A DNA stretch of 6,459 nucleotides, from the IMG/VR virus record IMGVR_UViG_2651869750_000008. One strand, written 5' to 3'. Made by a program: the position numbers and the translations under genes. How positions within the stretch are numbered: position 1 is the stretch's first letter; the number at the start of each line of letters is the position of its first letter. Below the pieces are notes generated by a model, which saw only the letters and a program-made list of their open reading frames with translations, ran no database searches and was not told the DNA's origin. Of this stretch, positions 1 through 6,459 are shown piece after piece. The DNA is from a virus. Lineage: Duplodnaviria > Heunggongvirae > Uroviricota > Caudoviricetes.

Positions 1-486
1 GAAGAAGGTCAGAAAGGGCTTATAGGCTGGTTTGAAAGCGGGGATGTGCGGGCCTATAAAATCCGTTTTCCGAATGGCACGGTGGATGTGTTTCGTGGCT
101 GGATCAGCAGTATCGGTAAGGCAGTGACGGCGAAAGAAGTGATCACCCGAACAGTGAAAGTGACCAACGTGGGCAAACCTTCCGTGGCGGAAGAACGCAG
201 CGAAATTACGCCGGCCACTGCAATTAAGGTGACACCGACATCCGGTACCGTGGAAAAAGGAAAAACAACCACCCTGACTGTTTCTTTTGAGCCGGAAAGT
301 GCAACCGACAAGACGTTCAGAGCGGTTTCCGCCGATCCGTCGAAAGCCACCATTAGTGTGAAAGATATGACAATTACGGTAAACGGCGTGGCGACAGGTA
401 AGGTGCAGATCCCTGTGGTGAGCGGAAATGGTCAGTTCGCCGCAGTGGCTGAAGTCACCGTTACTGAAGCGGGCGCTGCAGGGTAA
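1..486 (+). CDS. V: Major tail protein V, C-terminal part (5'-truncated by window edge); includes Ig-like (Big_2-type) C-terminal domain
   Basis: Frame 1 is open from nt 1 with no stop until TAA 484-486; the GTG at 46 in the ORF track is internal. Translation ([34 protein letters not shown]...) matches recalled lambda gpV C-terminus. The T/S/V-rich segment [10 protein letters not shown]...VTVTEAG fits an Ig-like fold. Followed 13 nt later by the G start, as in lambda. Confidence 0.9.
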
Positions 487-499
487 ACGGAGGTAATAC

Positions 500-931
500 A
501 TGTTTCTGAAAACAGAACAATTTGAATATAACGGTGTGTCCGTCACGCTTTCCGAGCTGTCTGCGCTGCAGCGTATTGAGCATCTTGCCCTCCTGAAACG
601 GCGTGCAGAACAGGCAGAATCCAGCGGCAACCTGCAGGTAAGCGTGGAAGATCTCGTCAGAACCGGCGCGTTTCTGGTGGCGATGTCCCTGTGGCATAAC
701 CATCCGCAGAAAACGGCATCACCGTCAATGAATGAGGCTGTGATGCAGATCGAACAGGAGGTGCTCACCACCTGGCCTGCGGATGCCATTGCCCGGGCGG
801 AAGATGTGGTGTTGCGTCTGTCCGGGATGAGCGGGGCTGTTCATGCGGATACTGACAGCACCGAAGTGGCGAAAAATAACGCACTGACTGATGATGATTT
901 TTCTGCGGGAAAGTCTTCGACGGCGAGCTGA
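500..931 (+). CDS. G: Tail assembly chaperone G
   Basis: ATG 500 preceded by GGAGG (489-493, 6-nt spacer). 143 aa; MFLKTEQFEYNGVSVTLSELSALQRIEHLALLKRRAEQAES... closely matches recalled lambda gpG. Position between V and H. Stop TGA 929-931, 16 nt after the slippery heptamer. Confidence 0.92.
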   Translation: MFLKTEQFEYNGVSVTLSELSALQRIEHLALLKRRAEQAESSGNLQVSVEDLVRTGAFLVAMSLWHNHPQKTASPSMNEAVMQIEQEVLTTWPADAIARAEDVVLRLSGMSGAVHADTDSTEVAKNNALTDDDFSAGKSSTAS

Positions 932-1371
932 ATTTTGCCCTCAGACTGGCGCGTGAGATGGGGAGGCCTGACTGGCGCGCCATGCTTGCCGGGATGACAT
1001 CCACCGAATATGCCGACTGGCGACATTTTTACCGTACGCATTATTTTCACGATACCCAACTGGATATGCATTTTTCCGGGCTGACGTACGCCGTACTCAG
1101 CCTGTTTTTTTGCGATCCGGATATGCATCCCTCTGATTTCAGTCTGCTTGCCCCCCGGCATGAGGAAGAGCAGACGGAGAGGCCGGATGAGGAAAAAATG
1201 CTGATGCAGAAAGCGGCAGGACTTGCCGGAGGCGTACGGTTCGGTGGGGACGGAGGGCGCGAGATTTTATCGTCTGCGGATGTGGCGGATGTCAGCGAGG
1301 ATGATGCCGCATTAATGATGGCTTCAGCGGGGATTCCCGGAGGTGTGAGATATGTCCCAGCCGGTTGGTGA
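500..1371 (+). CDS. T: Tail assembly chaperone G-T fusion (G residues 1-~138 joined to T by -1 frameshift at 907-913)
   Basis: The T reading frame (frame 1, open through 1371; ORF track 958-1371) has no ribosome-binding site of its own and its first ATG at 958 is internal. The sequence after the shift (GRPDWRAMLAGMTSTEYADWRHFYRTHYFHD...GGVRY) matches recalled lambda gpT. The 3' end overlaps the H start by 20 nt. Confidence 0.85.
907..913 (+). other. Programmed -1 ribosomal frameshift slippery heptamer G GGA AAG (G to G-T)
   Basis: GGGAAAG sits in G zero frame as GCG GGA AAG (X XXY YYZ), six codons before the G stop. The -1 frame continues open as VFDGELNFALRLAREMGRPDW... to TGA 1369-1371. 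Same heptamer and placement as the lambda G/GT shift site. Confidence 0.85.
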
Positions 1372-3931
1372 TCTTGTTATTGACCTGAGTCTGGATGCGG
1401 TCCGTTTCGATGAGCAGATGAGCCGGGTAAGGCGTCATTTTTCAGGACTGGAGACCGACGCCAGAAAAACCGCCAGTGCCGTTGAACAGAACCTGAGCCG
1501 CCAGGCGCTGGCTGCACAAAAAGCCGGGATTTCCGTCGGGCAGTATAAAGCGGCCATGCGAACCCTGCCCGCACAGTTTACGGATATCGCCACGCAGCTT
1601 GCCGGTGGTCAGAATCCCTGGCTGATCCTGCTGCAACAGGGCGGTCAGGTGAAGGACTCCTTCGGCGGGATGATCCCCATGTTCAGGGGACTTGCCGGTG
1701 CGATCACCCTGCCGATGGTGGGGGCCACCTCGCTGGCGGTGGCGACCGGTGCGCTGGCGTATGCCTGGTATCAGGGCAACTCAACCCTGTCCGATTTCAA
1801 CAAAACGCTGGTCCTTTCCGGCAATCAGGCGGGACTGACGGCAGATCGTATTCTGGCCCTGTCCAGAGCCGGGCAGGCGGCAGGGCTGACGTTTAACCAG
1901 ACCAGCGAGTCACTGACGGCGCTGGTGAATGCCGGTGTGCGTGGTGGTGAGCAGTTTGATGCCATCAACCAGAGTGTCGCGCGTTTTGCGTCTGCATCCG
2001 GTGTGGAGGTGGACAAGGTTGCAGAGGCTTTCGGAAAACTGACCACCGACCCGACGTCGGGACTGATGGCGATGGCGCGCCAGTTCCGTAACGTGACGGC
2101 AGAGCAGATTGCGTATGTTGCACAGCTGCAGCGTTCCGGAGACGAGGCCGGGGCATTGCAGGCGGCGAACGATATCGCCACGAAAGGCTTTGATGAGCAG
2201 ACCCGTCGCCTGAAAGAAAACATGGGAACACTGGAGACCTGGGCGGATAAAACAGGGAAGGCATTCAAATCGATGTGGGATGCCATTCTGGATATCGGTC
2301 GTCCTGAGTCCTCAGCGGATATGCTCGCCAGTGCACAGAAGGCATTTGATGAGGCGGATAAAAAATGGCAGTGGTACCAGAGCCGGAGCCAGCGCCGGGG
2401 AAAGACCTCCTCTTTCCGTGCCAACCTGCAGGGCGCATGGGATGACCGGGAAAATGCCCGTCTGGGGCTGGCAGCGGCCACGCTGCAGTCGGATATGGAA
2501 AAAGCCGGTGAACTGGCTACCAGGGACCGGGCCGAACGGGACGCATCACAGCTGAAGTATACCGGAGAGGCGCAGAAGGCGTATGAGCGTCTGCTGACGC
2601 CGCTGGAGAAATATACTAACCGGCAGGAAGAGCTGAATAAGGCCCTGAAAGACGGGAAAATCCTGCAGGCGGATTACAACACGCTGATGGCGGCGGCGAA
2701 AAAGGATTATGAATCGACGCTGAAAAAGCCGAAGTCGTCAGGTGTTAAAGTGTCAGCCGGTGAGCGTCAGGAAGACCTGACGCATGCGGCGCTGCTGGCG
2801 CTTGAAACCGAGCTCCGGACGCTGGAGAAGCACAGCGGAGCGAATGAGAAAATCAGCCAGCAGCGCCGGGATTTGTGGAAGGCGGAGAGTCAGTTCGCGG
2901 TACTGGAGGAGGCGGCGCAACGTCGCCAGCTGTCTGCACAGGAGAAATCCCTGCTGGCCCATGAGCAAGAGACGCTGGAGTACAAACGCCAGCTGGCTGA
3001 CCTGGGTGACAAGGTTGAATACCAGAAACGGCTGAATGAGCTGGCAAATCAGGCTGTGCGGTTTGAACAGCAGCAGAGTGCGAAGCAGGCTGCAATCAGC
3101 GCAAAAGCCCGGGGGCTGACGGACCGTCAGGCACAGCGGGAGTCGGAATCGCAGCGCCTTCGTGACGTGTACGGTGATAATCCGGATGCGCTGGCGAAGG
3201 CCACATCTGCACTGAAGAACACCTGGTCTGCGGAGGAGCAGCTTCGTGGAAGCTGGATGGCCGGTCTGAAGTCCGGCTGGGGCGAGTGGGCAGAAAGTGC
3301 GACGGACAGTTTTTCGCAGGTTAAAAGCGTGGCCACGCAGACCTTTGACGGTATTGCACAGAATATGGCAGCGATGCTGACCGGCAGCGAACAGAGCTGG
3401 CGTGGTTTCACCCGTTCTGTGCTCTCCATGCTGACAGAGATTTTTCTGAAGCAGGCCATGGTGGGGATTGTCGGGAGTATTGGCAGCGCCATGGGTGGTG
3501 CTTTCGGTGGTGGGGCGTCTGCCTCCACGGGGACGGCCATTCAGGCTGCGGCGGCGAACTTCCATTTCGCGACCGGAGGATTTACGGGAACCGGTGGCAA
3601 ATACGAACCTGCCGGTATTGTCCACCGCGGGGAGTTTGTCTTCACGAAGGAGGCAACCAGCCGGATTGGCGTCGGCAACCTGTATCGTCTGATGCGCGGG
3701 TATGCGGAAGGTGGTTATGTGGGCGGTGCCGGAAGTCCGGCGCAGATGCGGCGGGCGGAAGGCATTAGTTTTAATCAGAACAATCACGTGGTGATTCAGA
3801 ACGACGGCACCAACGGACAGGCGGGGCCGCAGCTGATGAAGGCGGTGTATGACATGGCCCGCAAGGGGGCGCAGGATGAGATTCAGGCGCAGATGCGTGA
3901 TGGCGGCGTCTTTTCCGGAGGCAGGCGATGA
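1352..3931 (+). CDS. H: Tail tape measure protein H
   Basis: 859-aa ORF; ATG 1352 preceded by GGAGG (1339-1343). N-terminus MSQPVGDLVIDLSLDAVRFDEQMSRVRRHF and C-terminus ...GEFVFTKEATSRIGVGNLYRLMRGYA...MRDGGVFSGG match recalled lambda gpH (853 aa). Long charged, alpha-helical central region plus Gly/Ala-rich hydrophobic segment near the C-terminus, typical of tape measure proteins. Confidence 0.95.
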   Translation: MSQPVGDLVIDLSLDAVRFDEQMSRVRRHFSGLETDARKTASAVEQNLSRQALAAQKAGISVGQYKAAMRTLPAQFTDIATQLAGGQNPWLILLQQGGQVKDSFGGMIPMFRGLAGAITLPMVGATSLAVATGALAYAWYQGNSTLSDFNKTLVLSGNQAGLTADRILALSRAGQAAGLTFNQTSESLTALVNAGVRGGEQFDAINQSVARFASASGVEVDKVAEAFGKLTTDPTSGLMAMARQFRNVTAEQIAYVAQLQRSGDEAGALQAANDIATKGFDEQTRRLKENMGTLETWADKTGKAFKSMWDAILDIGRPESSADMLASAQKAFDEADKKWQWYQSRSQRRGKTSSFRANLQGAWDDRENARLGLAAATLQSDMEKAGELATRDRAERDASQLKYTGEAQKAYERLLTPLEKYTNRQEELNKALKDGKILQADYNTLMAAAKKDYESTLKKPKSSGVKVSAGERQEDLTHAALLALETELRTLEKHSGANEKISQQRRDLWKAESQFAVLEEAAQRRQLSAQEKSLLAHEQETLEYKRQLADLGDKVEYQKRLNELANQAVRFEQQQSAKQAAISAKARGLTDRQAQRESESQRLRDVYGDNPDALAKATSALKNTWSAEEQLRGSWMAGLKSGWGEWAESATDSFSQVKSVATQTFDGIAQNMAAMLTGSEQSWRGFTRSVLSMLTEIFLKQAMVGIVGSIGSAMGGAFGGGASASTGTAIQAAAANFHFATGGFTGTGGKYEPAGIVHRGEFVFTKEATSRIGVGNLYRLMRGYAEGGYVGGAGSPAQMRRAEGISFNQNNHVVIQNDGTNGQAGPQLMKAVYDMARKGAQDEIQAQMRDGGVFSGGRR

Positions 3932-4257
3932 AAACATTTCGCTGGAAAGTGAAGCCGGATATGGAGGTGAACTCGCAGCCATCGGTGCGTGAAGTGCGTT
4001 TTGGTGACGGGTATTCGCAGCGTATGGCGGCGGGGCTGAATGCTGACCTGAAAACATACCGTGTGACGCTTTCCGTGACCCGGGAGGAGGCCCGACATCT
4101 GGAGGCATTCCTGGCAGAGCACGGTGGCTGGAAGGCGTTTCTGTGGACACCGCCTTATGCCTGGCGGCAGATAAAGGTGACCTGTGCCGCCTGGTCATCA
4201 CGGGTTCGCATGCTGCGGGTTGAATTCAGTGCCGAGTTTAAGCAGGTGGTGAACTGA
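3928..4257 (+). CDS. M: Tail tip protein M
   Basis: 109 aa; MKTFRWKVKP...GGWKAFLWTPPYAWRQIKVTCAAWSSRVRMLRVEFSAEFKQVVN matches recalled lambda gpM. ATG 3928-3930 overlaps the H stop (ATGA); GGAGG at 3917-3921. Confidence 0.93.
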   Translation: MKTFRWKVKPDMEVNSQPSVREVRFGDGYSQRMAAGLNADLKTYRVTLSVTREEARHLEAFLAEHGGWKAFLWTPPYAWRQIKVTCAAWSSRVRMLRVEFSAEFKQVVN

Positions 4258-4955
4258 TGCAGGATATTCACGAAGAAAGTCTGAACGAGTCGGTTAAATC
4301 AGAGCAGTCACCGCGGGTGGTGCTCTGGGAAATTGACCTGACGGTGCAGGGCGGTGAGCGGTATTTTTTCTGTAATGAGCTGAATGAAAAAGGGGAGGCG
4401 GTCACCTGGCAGGGGCGGCAATATCAGGCATACCCGATTGACGGCAGTGGCTTTGAGATGAACGGGAAGGGCAGCAGTGCCCGCCCGTCGCTGACGGTGT
4501 CGAATCTGTTCGGTCTGGTCACCGGAATGGCGGAGGACCTGCAGAGCCTGGTGGGGGCCACGGTGGTCCGCCGCCGGGTGTATGCCCGTTTTCTGGATGC
4601 GGTGAATTTTGTGGCGGGCAATCCGGAAGCGGACCCGGAGCAGGAGCTGAGCGACCGCTGGGTGGTGGAGCAGATGTCAGAGCTGACGGCCATGACAGCC
4701 TCGTTTGTGCTGGCAACACCGACGGAGACGGACGGAGCGCTGTTTCCCGGTCGCATCATGCTGGCGAACACCTGTATGTGGGATTACCGGGGAGATGAAT
4801 GCGGGTATAACGGTCCTGCGGTGGCGGATGAGTTCGATAAACCCACCACCGATATCCGTAAGGACAGATGCAGCAAGTGCATGCGCGGGTGTGAGATGCG
4901 CGGCATGGTGGCTAATTTTGGCGGTTTCCTTTCCATTAACAAACTTTCGCAGTAA
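4257..4955 (+). CDS. L: Tail tip protein L (predicted iron-sulfur cluster binding)
   Basis: 232 aa; MQDIHEESLNE...VVLWEIDLT...GGERYFFCNE...FGGFLSINKLSQ matches recalled lambda gpL. Start overlaps the M stop by 1 nt (TGATG at 4255-4259). C-terminal cysteine cluster with codons at 4773, 4800, 4869, 4878 and 4890. Confidence 0.95.
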   Translation: MQDIHEESLNESVKSEQSPRVVLWEIDLTVQGGERYFFCNELNEKGEAVTWQGRQYQAYPIDGSGFEMNGKGSSARPSLTVSNLFGLVTGMAEDLQSLVGATVVRRRVYARFLDAVNFVAGNPEADPEQELSDRWVVEQMSELTAMTASFVLATPTETDGALFPGRIMLANTCMWDYRGDECGYNGPAVADEFDKPTTDIRKDRCSKCMRGCEMRGMVANFGGFLSINKLSQ

Positions 4956-4960
4956 ATCCA

Positions 4961-5704
4961 ATGACACAGACAGAATCAGCGATTCTGGCGCATGCCCGGC
5001 GGTGTGTGCCTGCGGAGTCGTGCGGCTTCGTGGTGAGAACGCCGGAGGGGGAGCGGTATATCCCTTGTGTGAATATCTCTGCAGAGCCGGAGGCGTATTT
5101 TCGTATTGCACCGGAAGACTGGCTGCGGGCAGAGATGCAGGGGGAGATTGTGGCACTGGTCCACAGTCATCCCGGTGGTCTGCCCTGGCTGAGCGAGGCC
5201 GACCGGCGGCTGCAGATAAAAAGTGCACTGTCCTGGTGGCTGGTCTGCCGGGGGGAAATTCATAAATTCCGCTGTGTGCCACATCTGACAGGACGGCGCT
5301 TTGAGCACGGGGTGACGGACTGTTACACGCTGTTCCGGGATGCCTACCATCTGGCGGGAATTGATATGCCGGATTTTGAGCGTGAGGATGACTGGTGGCG
5401 CAACGGTCAGAACCTTTACCTGGACAATATGGAGGCGACTGGTTTTTACAGGATTTCCCTGCCTTCCGCACAGCCTGGCGATATCCTGCTGTGCTGCTTT
5501 GGCGCATCGGTGGCCAATCATGCCGCCATATACTGCGGCAACGGTGAGCTGCTTCACCATCTGCCTGAACAACTGAGTAAACGGGAGAGGTATTCCGAAA
5601 AATGGCAACGACGAACGCATTCAGCCTGGCGTCACCGCCACTGGCACGTATCTGCCTTCACGGGGATTTACAACGATTTGGCCGCCGCCTCAGCCTGTAT
5701 GTGA
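4961..5704 (+). CDS. K: Tail tip assembly protein K (N-terminal JAMM/MPN metalloprotease-like domain + C-terminal NlpC/P60-like domain)
   Basis: 247-aa ORF; MTQTESAILAHARRC...matches recalled lambda K. Exact JAMM motif H-x-H-x7-S-x2-D (HSHPGGLPWLSEAD) at nt 5162-5203. C-terminal half carries conserved Cys/His (GVTDCYTLF ... NHAAIYCG ... LLHH) consistent with NlpC/P60. The start at 4961 is needed to include the sequence upstream of the JAMM motif; no in-frame Met occurs before M59. Confidence 0.9.
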   Translation: MTQTESAILAHARRCVPAESCGFVVRTPEGERYIPCVNISAEPEAYFRIAPEDWLRAEMQGEIVALVHSHPGGLPWLSEADRRLQIKSALSWWLVCRGEIHKFRCVPHLTGRRFEHGVTDCYTLFRDAYHLAGIDMPDFEREDDWWRNGQNLYLDNMEATGFYRISLPSAQPGDILLCCFGASVANHAAIYCGNGELLHHLPEQLSKRERYSEKWQRRTHSAWRHRHWHVSAFTGIYNDLAAASACM

Positions 5705-6282
5705 ACACGGCAGCGGAAGCCATCCGTGCCCTGTCGATGCAGATGCCGGGATTCCGCCGTCAGATGAACGAAGGCTGGTACCAGATACGTATTCGCGGTG
5801 AGGACACGGCACCGGAGGCGGTGTACGCCCGTCTTCACGAACAGCTGGGTGAGGGAACGGTCATCCACATTGTGCCGCGACTGGCCGGGGCCGGAAAGGG
5901 TGGACTGCAGATTGTGCTGGGGGCGGCAGCCATCGTGGGCTCTTTCTTCACGGCCGGAGGCTCGATGGCGTTATGGGGTACAGCCCTGAGTGCCGGTGGT
6001 TTTTCTGCCACCACGATGCTGTTTTCACTGGGGGCCAGCATGATTCTGGGCGGTGTGGCCCAGATGCTGGCCCCGAAGGCAAAAACACCGGATTACCGCG
6101 CAACGGATAACGGCAGACAGAACACGTACTTTTCCTCGCTGGATAACATGATTGCCCAGGGGAACCCGATGCCGGTGCCTTACGGTGAAATGCTGGTTGG
6201 CTCCCGCCGTATATCCCAGGACATCAGTACCCGTGATGAAGGCGGTGACGGGAAGGTGGTGGTTATCGGGCGGCAGGCATAA
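5602..6282 (+). CDS. I: Tail tip assembly protein I (N-terminal ubiquitin-like domain ending in Gly-Gly + hydrophobic C-terminal region)
   Basis: 226 aa; ...ARICLHGDLQRFGRR...IHIVPR...QIVLGAAAI...LGGVAQMLAPKA...TDNGRQNTYFSSLDNMIAQGN...VVVIGR matches recalled lambda gpI (223 aa). ATG 5602 lies inside the 3' end of K in a different frame (103-nt overlap). Stop TAA 6280-6282. Confidence 0.93.
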   Translation: MATTNAFSLASPPLARICLHGDLQRFGRRLSLYVNTAAEAIRALSMQMPGFRRQMNEGWYQIRIRGEDTAPEAVYARLHEQLGEGTVIHIVPRLAGAGKGGLQIVLGAAAIVGSFFTAGGSMALWGTALSAGGFSATTMLFSLGASMILGGVAQMLAPKAKTPDYRATDNGRQNTYFSSLDNMIAQGNPMPVPYGEMLVGSRRISQDISTRDEGGDGKVVVIGRQA

Positions 6283-6325
6283 AAGCGAAAAAATCCCGCA
6301 GTGCTCACGGACAGGAACTGCGGGA
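6283..6325 (-). terminator. Candidate Rho-independent terminator oriented for minus-strand transcription
   Basis: Inverted repeat CCCGCAGT (6295-6302) / ACTGCGGG (6317-6324), extendable by a T6294-A6325 pair, with a 14-nt loop. The plus strand has an A-run (6288-6293) 5' of the stem, so the minus strand reads stem-loop then ATTTTTTCGCTT. The plus-strand 3' flank (AGAGTTACG) is not U-rich. The loop is rather large for a canonical terminator. Confidence 0.4.
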
Positions 6326-6459
6326 GAGTTACGAAGATTGAGTGTAAGGAATTATTCTTATGTGTAAGCGCATCATTTAAACCGTCTTTCGCCTCCCTTT
6401 CCTGTTTCCGATACTAATGTCCATTTTCGCAGTAAAAGGACATTTAAGATGAATGCACG

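Follow-up and report, generated by a model that had tools for sequence, protein, structure and literature searches.

Probable junction of a prophage small RNA locus and IS679 after gene I of a lambda-like tail operon

PasB is an Hfq-dependent small RNA (sRNA) of 83 nt, confirmed by Northern blotting, that is encoded in prophage PP6 of EPEC E2348/69 at NC_011601.1 1466343..1466261 on the minus strand (probe AATCCCGCAGTGATCGCGGAGCT; Pearl Mizrahi et al. 2021, PMC8550237, table S6). The distribution of PasB is treated in a preprint (10.64898/2026.05.13.724894). From prophage Sp15 of EHEC O157:H7 Sakai, EcOnc22 was detected by Northern blotting at approximately 85 nt and was destabilised without hfq, and EcOnc23 (Sp14) and EcOnc24 (Sp11) are its homologues (Tree et al. 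2014, PMC4104026, Table S2). The phage sodC genes of E. coli O157:H7 examined by D'Orazio et al. 2008 (sodC-F1/F2; PMC2569942) include ECs_1989, which is the sodC gene of Sakai Sp10. Elements of the IS66 family consist of tnpABC between repeats and come with 8-bp duplications (PMC6778807).

Here, we analyzed the entire contig JHRY01000157.1 (6459 bp, referred to as the window) of the draft assembly GCA_001265715.1. Its open reading frames and annotated relatives identified a lambda-like, plus-strand tail operon, of which the window contains the right half. We concluded, with a probability of roughly 0.88, that the 177 nt after gene I are the junction of two known elements, a prophage sRNA remnant and the left end of IS679. 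Every element of the segment 6283-6459 has already been described; the coordinates are summarized in Table 1.

Table 1 Features of the window and IS66-family insertion sites around the I–J spacer (positions with an L number refer to comparison loci)
Feature	Position	Strand	Remark
Tail genes, in order: V (partial), G, T, 859-aa tape measure, M, L, K, I		+	
Gene I, tail assembly protein	5701..6282	+	193 aa, GTG start, 4-nt overlap with the end of K
I–J spacer, first 81 nt	6283..6363	.	Conserved in this lambdoid tail module
PasB/EcOnc22-24 family sRNA gene remnant, 5'-truncated, 76 nt	6288..6363	-	Alignment to PasB
Terminator hairpin	6294..6325	-	9-bp stem, 14-nt loop; U-tract 6293-6288
IS679 (IS66 family) left end	6364..6459	+	Cut by contig end
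Left terminal inverted repeat, imperfect, ~25 bp, begins GTAAGCG	6364..6388	+	IRL versus IRR comparison
tnpA Shine-Dalgarno AAAGGA	6435..6440	+	8 nt before annotated tnpA start
tnpA, first 11 nt (M-N-A-...)	6449..6459	+	IS66-family accessory protein gene
IS66-family site 1: 3' end of I, FDAARGOS_1059	L002 6263-6270/8974-8981	+	Target duplication GGTTATCG
IS66-family site 2: AGATTGAG	L005 10640-10647/13350-13357	-	
IS66-family site 3: this window, after TCTTATGT		+	
IS66-family site 4: after GGATGTGC	L006/L007/L009 ~10700, L013 ~751	-	

The sRNA locus after gene I

Gene I ends with the TAA stop at 6280-6282; identical coordinates are annotated for it in FDAARGOS_1059 and RM14723, and Pfam Lambda_tail_I is listed for a protein identical to its product. 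On the left, the window opens inside the gene for the major tail protein V (1-486). Both contig ends are probably repeat-induced breaks, because similar lambdoid prophages in one genome share this region. A GGGAAAG heptamer at 907-913 precedes the end of the ORF for the G chaperone (500-931; the T ORF spans 958-1371) by 18 nt, which is the position expected for the slippery site of a lambda-type G/GT -1 frameshift; the window contains two matches to the motif, no excess over chance, and the case for a frameshift site is one of position alone.

The GC content was calculated as 0.580 for the tail genes (1-6282), 0.429 for 6283-6459, 0.385 for 6330-6459, and 0.417 for 6364-6459. The AT-richer stretch from about 6330 that had been noticed in the initial annotation was therefore borne out, and all of the feature coordinates given there proved correct when the sequence was read again. 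Its observation that the 177 nt after the I stop contain no J start also held, with J of the relatives beginning at least 240 nt downstream: the distance from the I stop is 240 nt in loci without sodC and approximately 850 nt in those with sodC.

The first 81 nt of the spacer (6283-6363) were 100% identical to RM14723 (L003 5284-5364), identical at 80 of 81 positions to Sakai Sp10, and 97.5% identical to phage JLK-2012. The hairpin within them is formed by the pairs T6294-A6325 through T6302-A6317, with U6 next on the minus strand. Its RNA fold was estimated at -16.1 kcal/mol (z = -2.86), two of 200 shuffled sequences being as stable, and a simple terminator scan also flagged it on the minus strand. 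The minus-strand terminator that had been read from the letters, with its stem and U-run, was hence confirmed by both approaches. The stem CCCGCAG/CTGCGGG was found with other loops in PP6 of E2348/69, Sakai Sp11, Sp14, and Sp15, and JLK-2012, and was invariant across the alleles, which indicates conservation without covariation. When four alleles were subjected to RNAalifold, MAFFT misaligned the 5' arm of the stem owing to the unequal loop lengths, and the stem was again without variation. A search of 5600-6459 against Rfam (E-value mode) gave no matching model, the sole match being a meaningless lncRNA with E = 2.2. By the same search of 5600-6459, AgvB and AsxR, known EHEC prophage sRNAs, were rejected as candidates for this locus.

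The relation of the hairpin to PasB was evident from the genome positions. In NC_011601.1, the I gene ends at 1466255 and J begins at 1466496; comparison with the coordinates of PasB identified PasB as a minus-strand transcript of the I–J spacer, whose 3' end lies 6 nt past the I stop. The U-run of the window ends at 6288, likewise 6 nt past the I stop at 6282. At aligned positions, the identity to PasB was 78% for the intact allele of RM14723 and 85% for the 76-nt remnant in the window. The sRNA body showed 77-85% identity to PasB and to the Sakai type (aligned positions), with an AAUCUUC core in common. Three sequence types of the locus were distinguished, which are 77-83% identical and all fold as an open stretch of approximately 45 nt followed by one hairpin and U6-7; the third type comprises the allele of the window as well as those of JLK-2012, RM14723, and Sakai Sp10. 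Judging from sequence, the hairpin and U-run (6288-6325) are the predicted intrinsic terminator of a PasB-type sRNA, and the A/U/C-rich stretch 6326-6363 would form most of its single-stranded body. In one of its two readings, the initial annotation had placed this terminator about 50 nt past a minus-strand protein gene; it is instead the 3' end of a PasB/EcOnc22-type sRNA locus. The hairpin after I accordingly marks an experimentally supported sRNA locus that annotation misses in more than 1000 E. coli genomes.

The printed coordinates of EcOnc22-24 fall inside three I–J spacers, antisense to the tail genes and 115-150 nt off the hairpin. The location near the start of J that they imply was rejected, as the table follows an earlier Sakai record with 128 nt less upstream sequence. 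The shift of +128 to NC_002695.2 was deduced from three calibrations and not from the old Sakai record: an Rfam AgvB match in NC_002695.2 has coordinates 137-146 nt higher than the EcOnc01a peak as printed, the STnc100 match in Sp17 contains EcOnc06 only once 128 is added, and EcOnc51 + 128 ends exactly at the T-run of a terminator. After the shift, the EcOnc22 peak (2902842-2902902) spans the body of the sRNA together with the 5' stem arm of the homologous hairpin. PasB and EcOnc22-24 are, as far as sequence comparison can tell, one locus. No such link was found in the papers on these sRNAs that were consulted, and the equivalence is a small addition to the known facts. The evidence of expression concerns the alleles of E2348/69 and Sakai Sp11, Sp14, and Sp15 only; the window-type allele is known by sequence.

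The offset itself is of practical relevance. The EcOnc coordinates in Table S2 of PMC4104026 are 128 nt below those of NC_002695.2 at least from 1.94 Mb to 3.49 Mb, and EcOnc sRNAs put on NC_002695.2 from the printed values will be misplaced. In Sakai Sp12 (L019 669-784; 2237568-2237683), the 3' half of a second PasA-like terminator ends at 2237683, beside the PasA homologue at 2237468-2237535, and the shifted EcOnc51 peak ends at 2237683 as well; Sp12 may contain two tandem PasA-like genes. Separately, in I–J spacers without sodC, the strand of the tail operon has a further hairpin, ACAGGCACC...GGTGCCTGT with TGTTTT after it, approximately 50-90 nt before J (L016 1530-1575 in Sakai Sp15, L001 ~2370-2400, and L015 ~1945-1975). 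It is absent from the window and looks like a sense-strand terminator within the late operon.

The reported 5' end of PasB was mapped by alignment to approximately 6 nt right of 6363. The best sigma-70-like box in E2348/69, TTCACA-16-TATAAT, is too remote, with 21 nt between it and the reported 5' end downstream, and reads AATAAT in Sakai and JLK-2012. A weaker TAnnnT box has the right distance from the reported 5' end, and the promoter could not be assigned with confidence.

The sodC gene of related prophages

Prophage-borne sodC is analogous to sodCI of Gifsy-2. A minus-strand sodC encoding a Cu,Zn superoxide dismutase of 175 aa was identified in the I–J interval of 539 of the 5426 complete E. 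coli genomes, including O157:H7. The order I, sodC (-), J was observed in RM14723, L004, L008, L010-L012, and Sakai Sp10, and all intact loci with an identical I protein have sodC (-) followed by J; sodC was also sought in Sakai Sp17 and was not found there. Before the insertion, sodC and then J would by this comparison have stood to the right of the spacer. The proposal of a moron or cargo site between I and J therefore stands for the relatives, which carry sodC there, but fails for the AT-rich DNA of the window, which is IS679.

These relatives suggest another function for the hairpin, namely that it terminates the sodC moron, or does so as a back-up, in which case the AT-rich stretch would belong to the cargo locus. 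Relatives with an identical spacer do transcribe sodC toward the hairpin from approximately 190 nt, and as the sodC module replaces the AATAAT/TATAAT box, a transcript reaching the hairpin would be most simply explained as sodC read-through. However, sodC already has a GC-rich hairpin and T-run of its own directly after its stop (L003 5445-5468), and the window-type hairpin lies about 150 nt beyond it. The sodC-free JLK-2012, Stx1a/Stx2c phages, PP6, and Sp11, Sp14, and Sp15 equally have the hairpin and the initial 106 nt of the spacer, and in sodC-free loci the hairpin is the mapped 3' end of PasB (PMC8550237). Furthermore, the AT-rich stretch from 6364 is IS679 and not cargo. Since sodC has its own terminator and the hairpin also occurs in phages without sodC, the hairpin of the window is not primarily a sodC terminator but could catch read-through, and we consider the explanation by sodC as a whole unlikely but not negligible.

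At its left edge, the sodC module meets the region upstream of the sRNA precisely at the AATAAT/TATAAT box, and the module replaces this box (L003 5385-5400 versus L001 2283-2300). The Sakai copies with Hfq peaks (Sp11, Sp14, and Sp15) are without sodC, and for the sodC-linked Sp10 copy, which is of the window type, no EcOnc peak is listed in PMC4104026. A loss of their own promoter by the sodC-linked sRNA copies is faintly hinted at. What the sodC module may do to the promoter of the sRNA is again a small addition to the known facts, and prophages with sodC may have come to make the sRNA as an RNA derived from the sodC 3'-UTR.

The IS679 left end and the end of the contig

A PasB-type remnant accounts for the spacer up to 6363, where the homology to prophages ends. 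In a megablast search of 5602-6459 against phage records, query positions 1..762 (to window 6363) were matched in 129 records, including JLK-2012 and many Stx1a/Stx2c/Stx2a phages, and the prophage matches in the 5426 complete E. coli genomes also ended at 6363. A four-way alignment located the switch after ...ATTCTTATGT, from which the window goes on with GTAAGCGCATCATTTAAACC... The sequence 6351/6364-6459 was detected at 2853 places in 1829 of the 5426 genomes, where the annotation has the beginning of an 'IS66-like element accessory protein TnpA'. The segment 6364-6459 agreed at 96/96 positions with the left end of an IS679 copy of 2704 bp in FDAARGOS_1059 (L002 6270-6365) and was 100% identical to the IS copies in L006, L007, and L009. 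The view that the segment is foreign to the tail operon is thus supported from 6364 onward, where the left end of IS679 begins.

IS679 was reportedly described by Han et al. in 2001 (J Bacteriol 183:4296). As in IS679 and the IS66 family, the terminal repeat of the window starts with GTAAGCG (6364-6370), and positions 1-7, 10-11, 17-22, and 24-25 of the IRL match the reverse-complemented IRR of the complete copy. The copy in FDAARGOS_1059 has the ends GTAAGCG...CGCTTAC, finishes with ...GCCGCTTAC, and is flanked by the 8-bp duplication GGTTATCG; tnpA (216 aa), tnpB, and an 'IS679 family transposase' are annotated in it. The length of 2704 bp and the gene order, which we take to be those of IS679, come partly from this RefSeq copy. 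Position 6449 of the window aligns with L002 6355, where tnpA (WP_000993956.1, 216 aa) is annotated to start; HTH_Tnp_1 is listed for its product, and complete copies with identical ends have all three genes, tnpA, tnpB, and that of a DDE transposase. The comparison with annotated genomes therefore led from the frame at 6449 to the annotated start of an IS66-like tnpA: the plus-strand gene at ATG 6449 is real, whereas its interpretation as phage cargo has to be abandoned, since the gene is tnpA of IS679. The call as IS679 rests on 96 nt, and a near-identical relative in the IS66 family may be the alternative.

We propose that IS679 transposed into the I–J spacer in the same orientation as the tail operon. 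The part of the IS within the window comprises the inverted repeat of the left end, then a leader of 85 nt, and finally the ribosome-binding site with the first tnpA codons. The 8-bp duplications at other copies are GGTTATCG (L002) and AGATTGAG (L005). For the window, TCTTATGT would be the expected duplication, with the right end of the IS beyond the contig, and the right junction of a simple insertion would be predicted to read ...GCCGCTTAC/TCTTATGT/CACGACAAAAACATTAAC.

A search with the tape-measure protein showed that the window is the whole contig, which leaves no sequence for the extension to the right that the initial annotation had proposed. The right end of the window is an assembly break and not a biological boundary: short-read assemblies break at a multi-copy IS, and the contig consequently ends inside the repeat, 96 nt in. 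Such a repeat-induced break accounts for everything from 6364 onward in the window. Where a short contig ends with a change of composition and an unclear gene boundary, a repeat-induced assembly break should therefore be the first explanation to test.

The exact prophage-IS junction was absent from all 5426 of the 5426 complete E. coli genomes and is known from one draft contig; an exact search for the 37-nt junction in the GTDB representative genomes also gave no match. A single match of at least 80% to the junction in complete E. coli was rejected, as it consisted of two separate pieces joined. A chimera of the assembly without any real insertion would agree with this occurrence in one 6459-bp contig and in no complete genome searched, and with the stop of the contig 96 nt into a repeat. 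The break is nevertheless located exactly at the first base of the terminal repeat (GTAAGCG), as transposition would give, and genuine IS66-family insertions with 8-bp duplications were found in other genomes at three other positions within approximately 140 nt. A chimera is accordingly very improbable.

The second reading of the initial annotation, a minus-strand protein gene that enters from the right and stops at 6373-6375, can hardly be upheld: the frame is open from the window end to this stop (TCA on the plus strand), but in the complete IS it has 74 codons only, is antisense to the 5' end of tnpA, begins inside the terminal repeat region, and is unannotated in the RefSeq copies examined, and the sequence is the end of a mobile element that occurs in 1829 genomes in unrelated contexts.

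Effect of the insertion, recurrence, and comparison with known systems

With IS679 present from 6364, the complete transcription unit of the sRNA, including its 5' end and promoter, is not retained in the window, and a scan of both strands of 5600-6459 gave no promoter-like site. The IS would remove the first few nucleotides of the sRNA and everything upstream, and 2.7 kb would lie between the remnant and its former source of transcription. As an independent sRNA, the remnant of 76 nt (6288-6363) is probably silent, because it was cut from its upstream sequence by the IS and because 5600-6459 has no promoter-like site. The IS would also put 2.7 kb between I and J with the distal tail genes, with polarity on J as the presumed consequence. 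With the sRNA interrupted and I no longer joined to J, the prophage is likely to be defective for tail-tip expression and for the PasB-type sRNA.

IS66-family elements were found at four different sites within approximately 140 nt around the I stop and the I-sodC spacer (equivalent to window 6262-6400). The IS copies in L006, L007, and L009 had been considered as insertions at the very nucleotide of the window in the opposite orientation; this was rejected, their junctions being 37 nt further right. Beyond the far end of their IS, the sequence is unrelated (nleB region), and an IS-mediated deletion is therefore suggested for these three loci. Whether the sRNA locus in the I–J spacer is a recurrent landing pad for mobile DNA is doubtful, and the four sites may instead represent a permissive site sampled in thousands of genomes. 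If it were true, through target preference or selection, mobile DNA would repeatedly rewire or silence the sRNA.

The locus of the window agrees with PasB in its location between I and J, its orientation antisense to the tail operon, its 3' end 6 nt past the I stop, its terminator stem and U-run, and its arrangement as an open 5' part with a single hairpin. It differs from PasB in the loop (14 nt in the window and 11 nt in PasB) and, owing to the IS, in being without the first approximately 6 nt and all upstream sequence. EcOnc22, EcOnc23, and EcOnc24, which are Hfq-crosslinked RNAs, showed 78% identity to the intact window-type allele and represent a different sequence type; the Sakai counterpart of the window type is the Sp10 copy (80/81). 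Compared with the prophage sodC loci, gene I and the spacer are alike, whereas the window holds no sodC sequence. The IS679 site of the window, in the I–J spacer 81 nt past the I stop in the plus orientation, was not shared by any other genome searched. Complete copies of IS679 have tnpA-tnpB-transposase and 8-bp duplications, while the window holds the first 96 nt only, and these comprise the same left 96 nt with the GTAAGCG repeat, the tnpA start, and its Shine-Dalgarno sequence.
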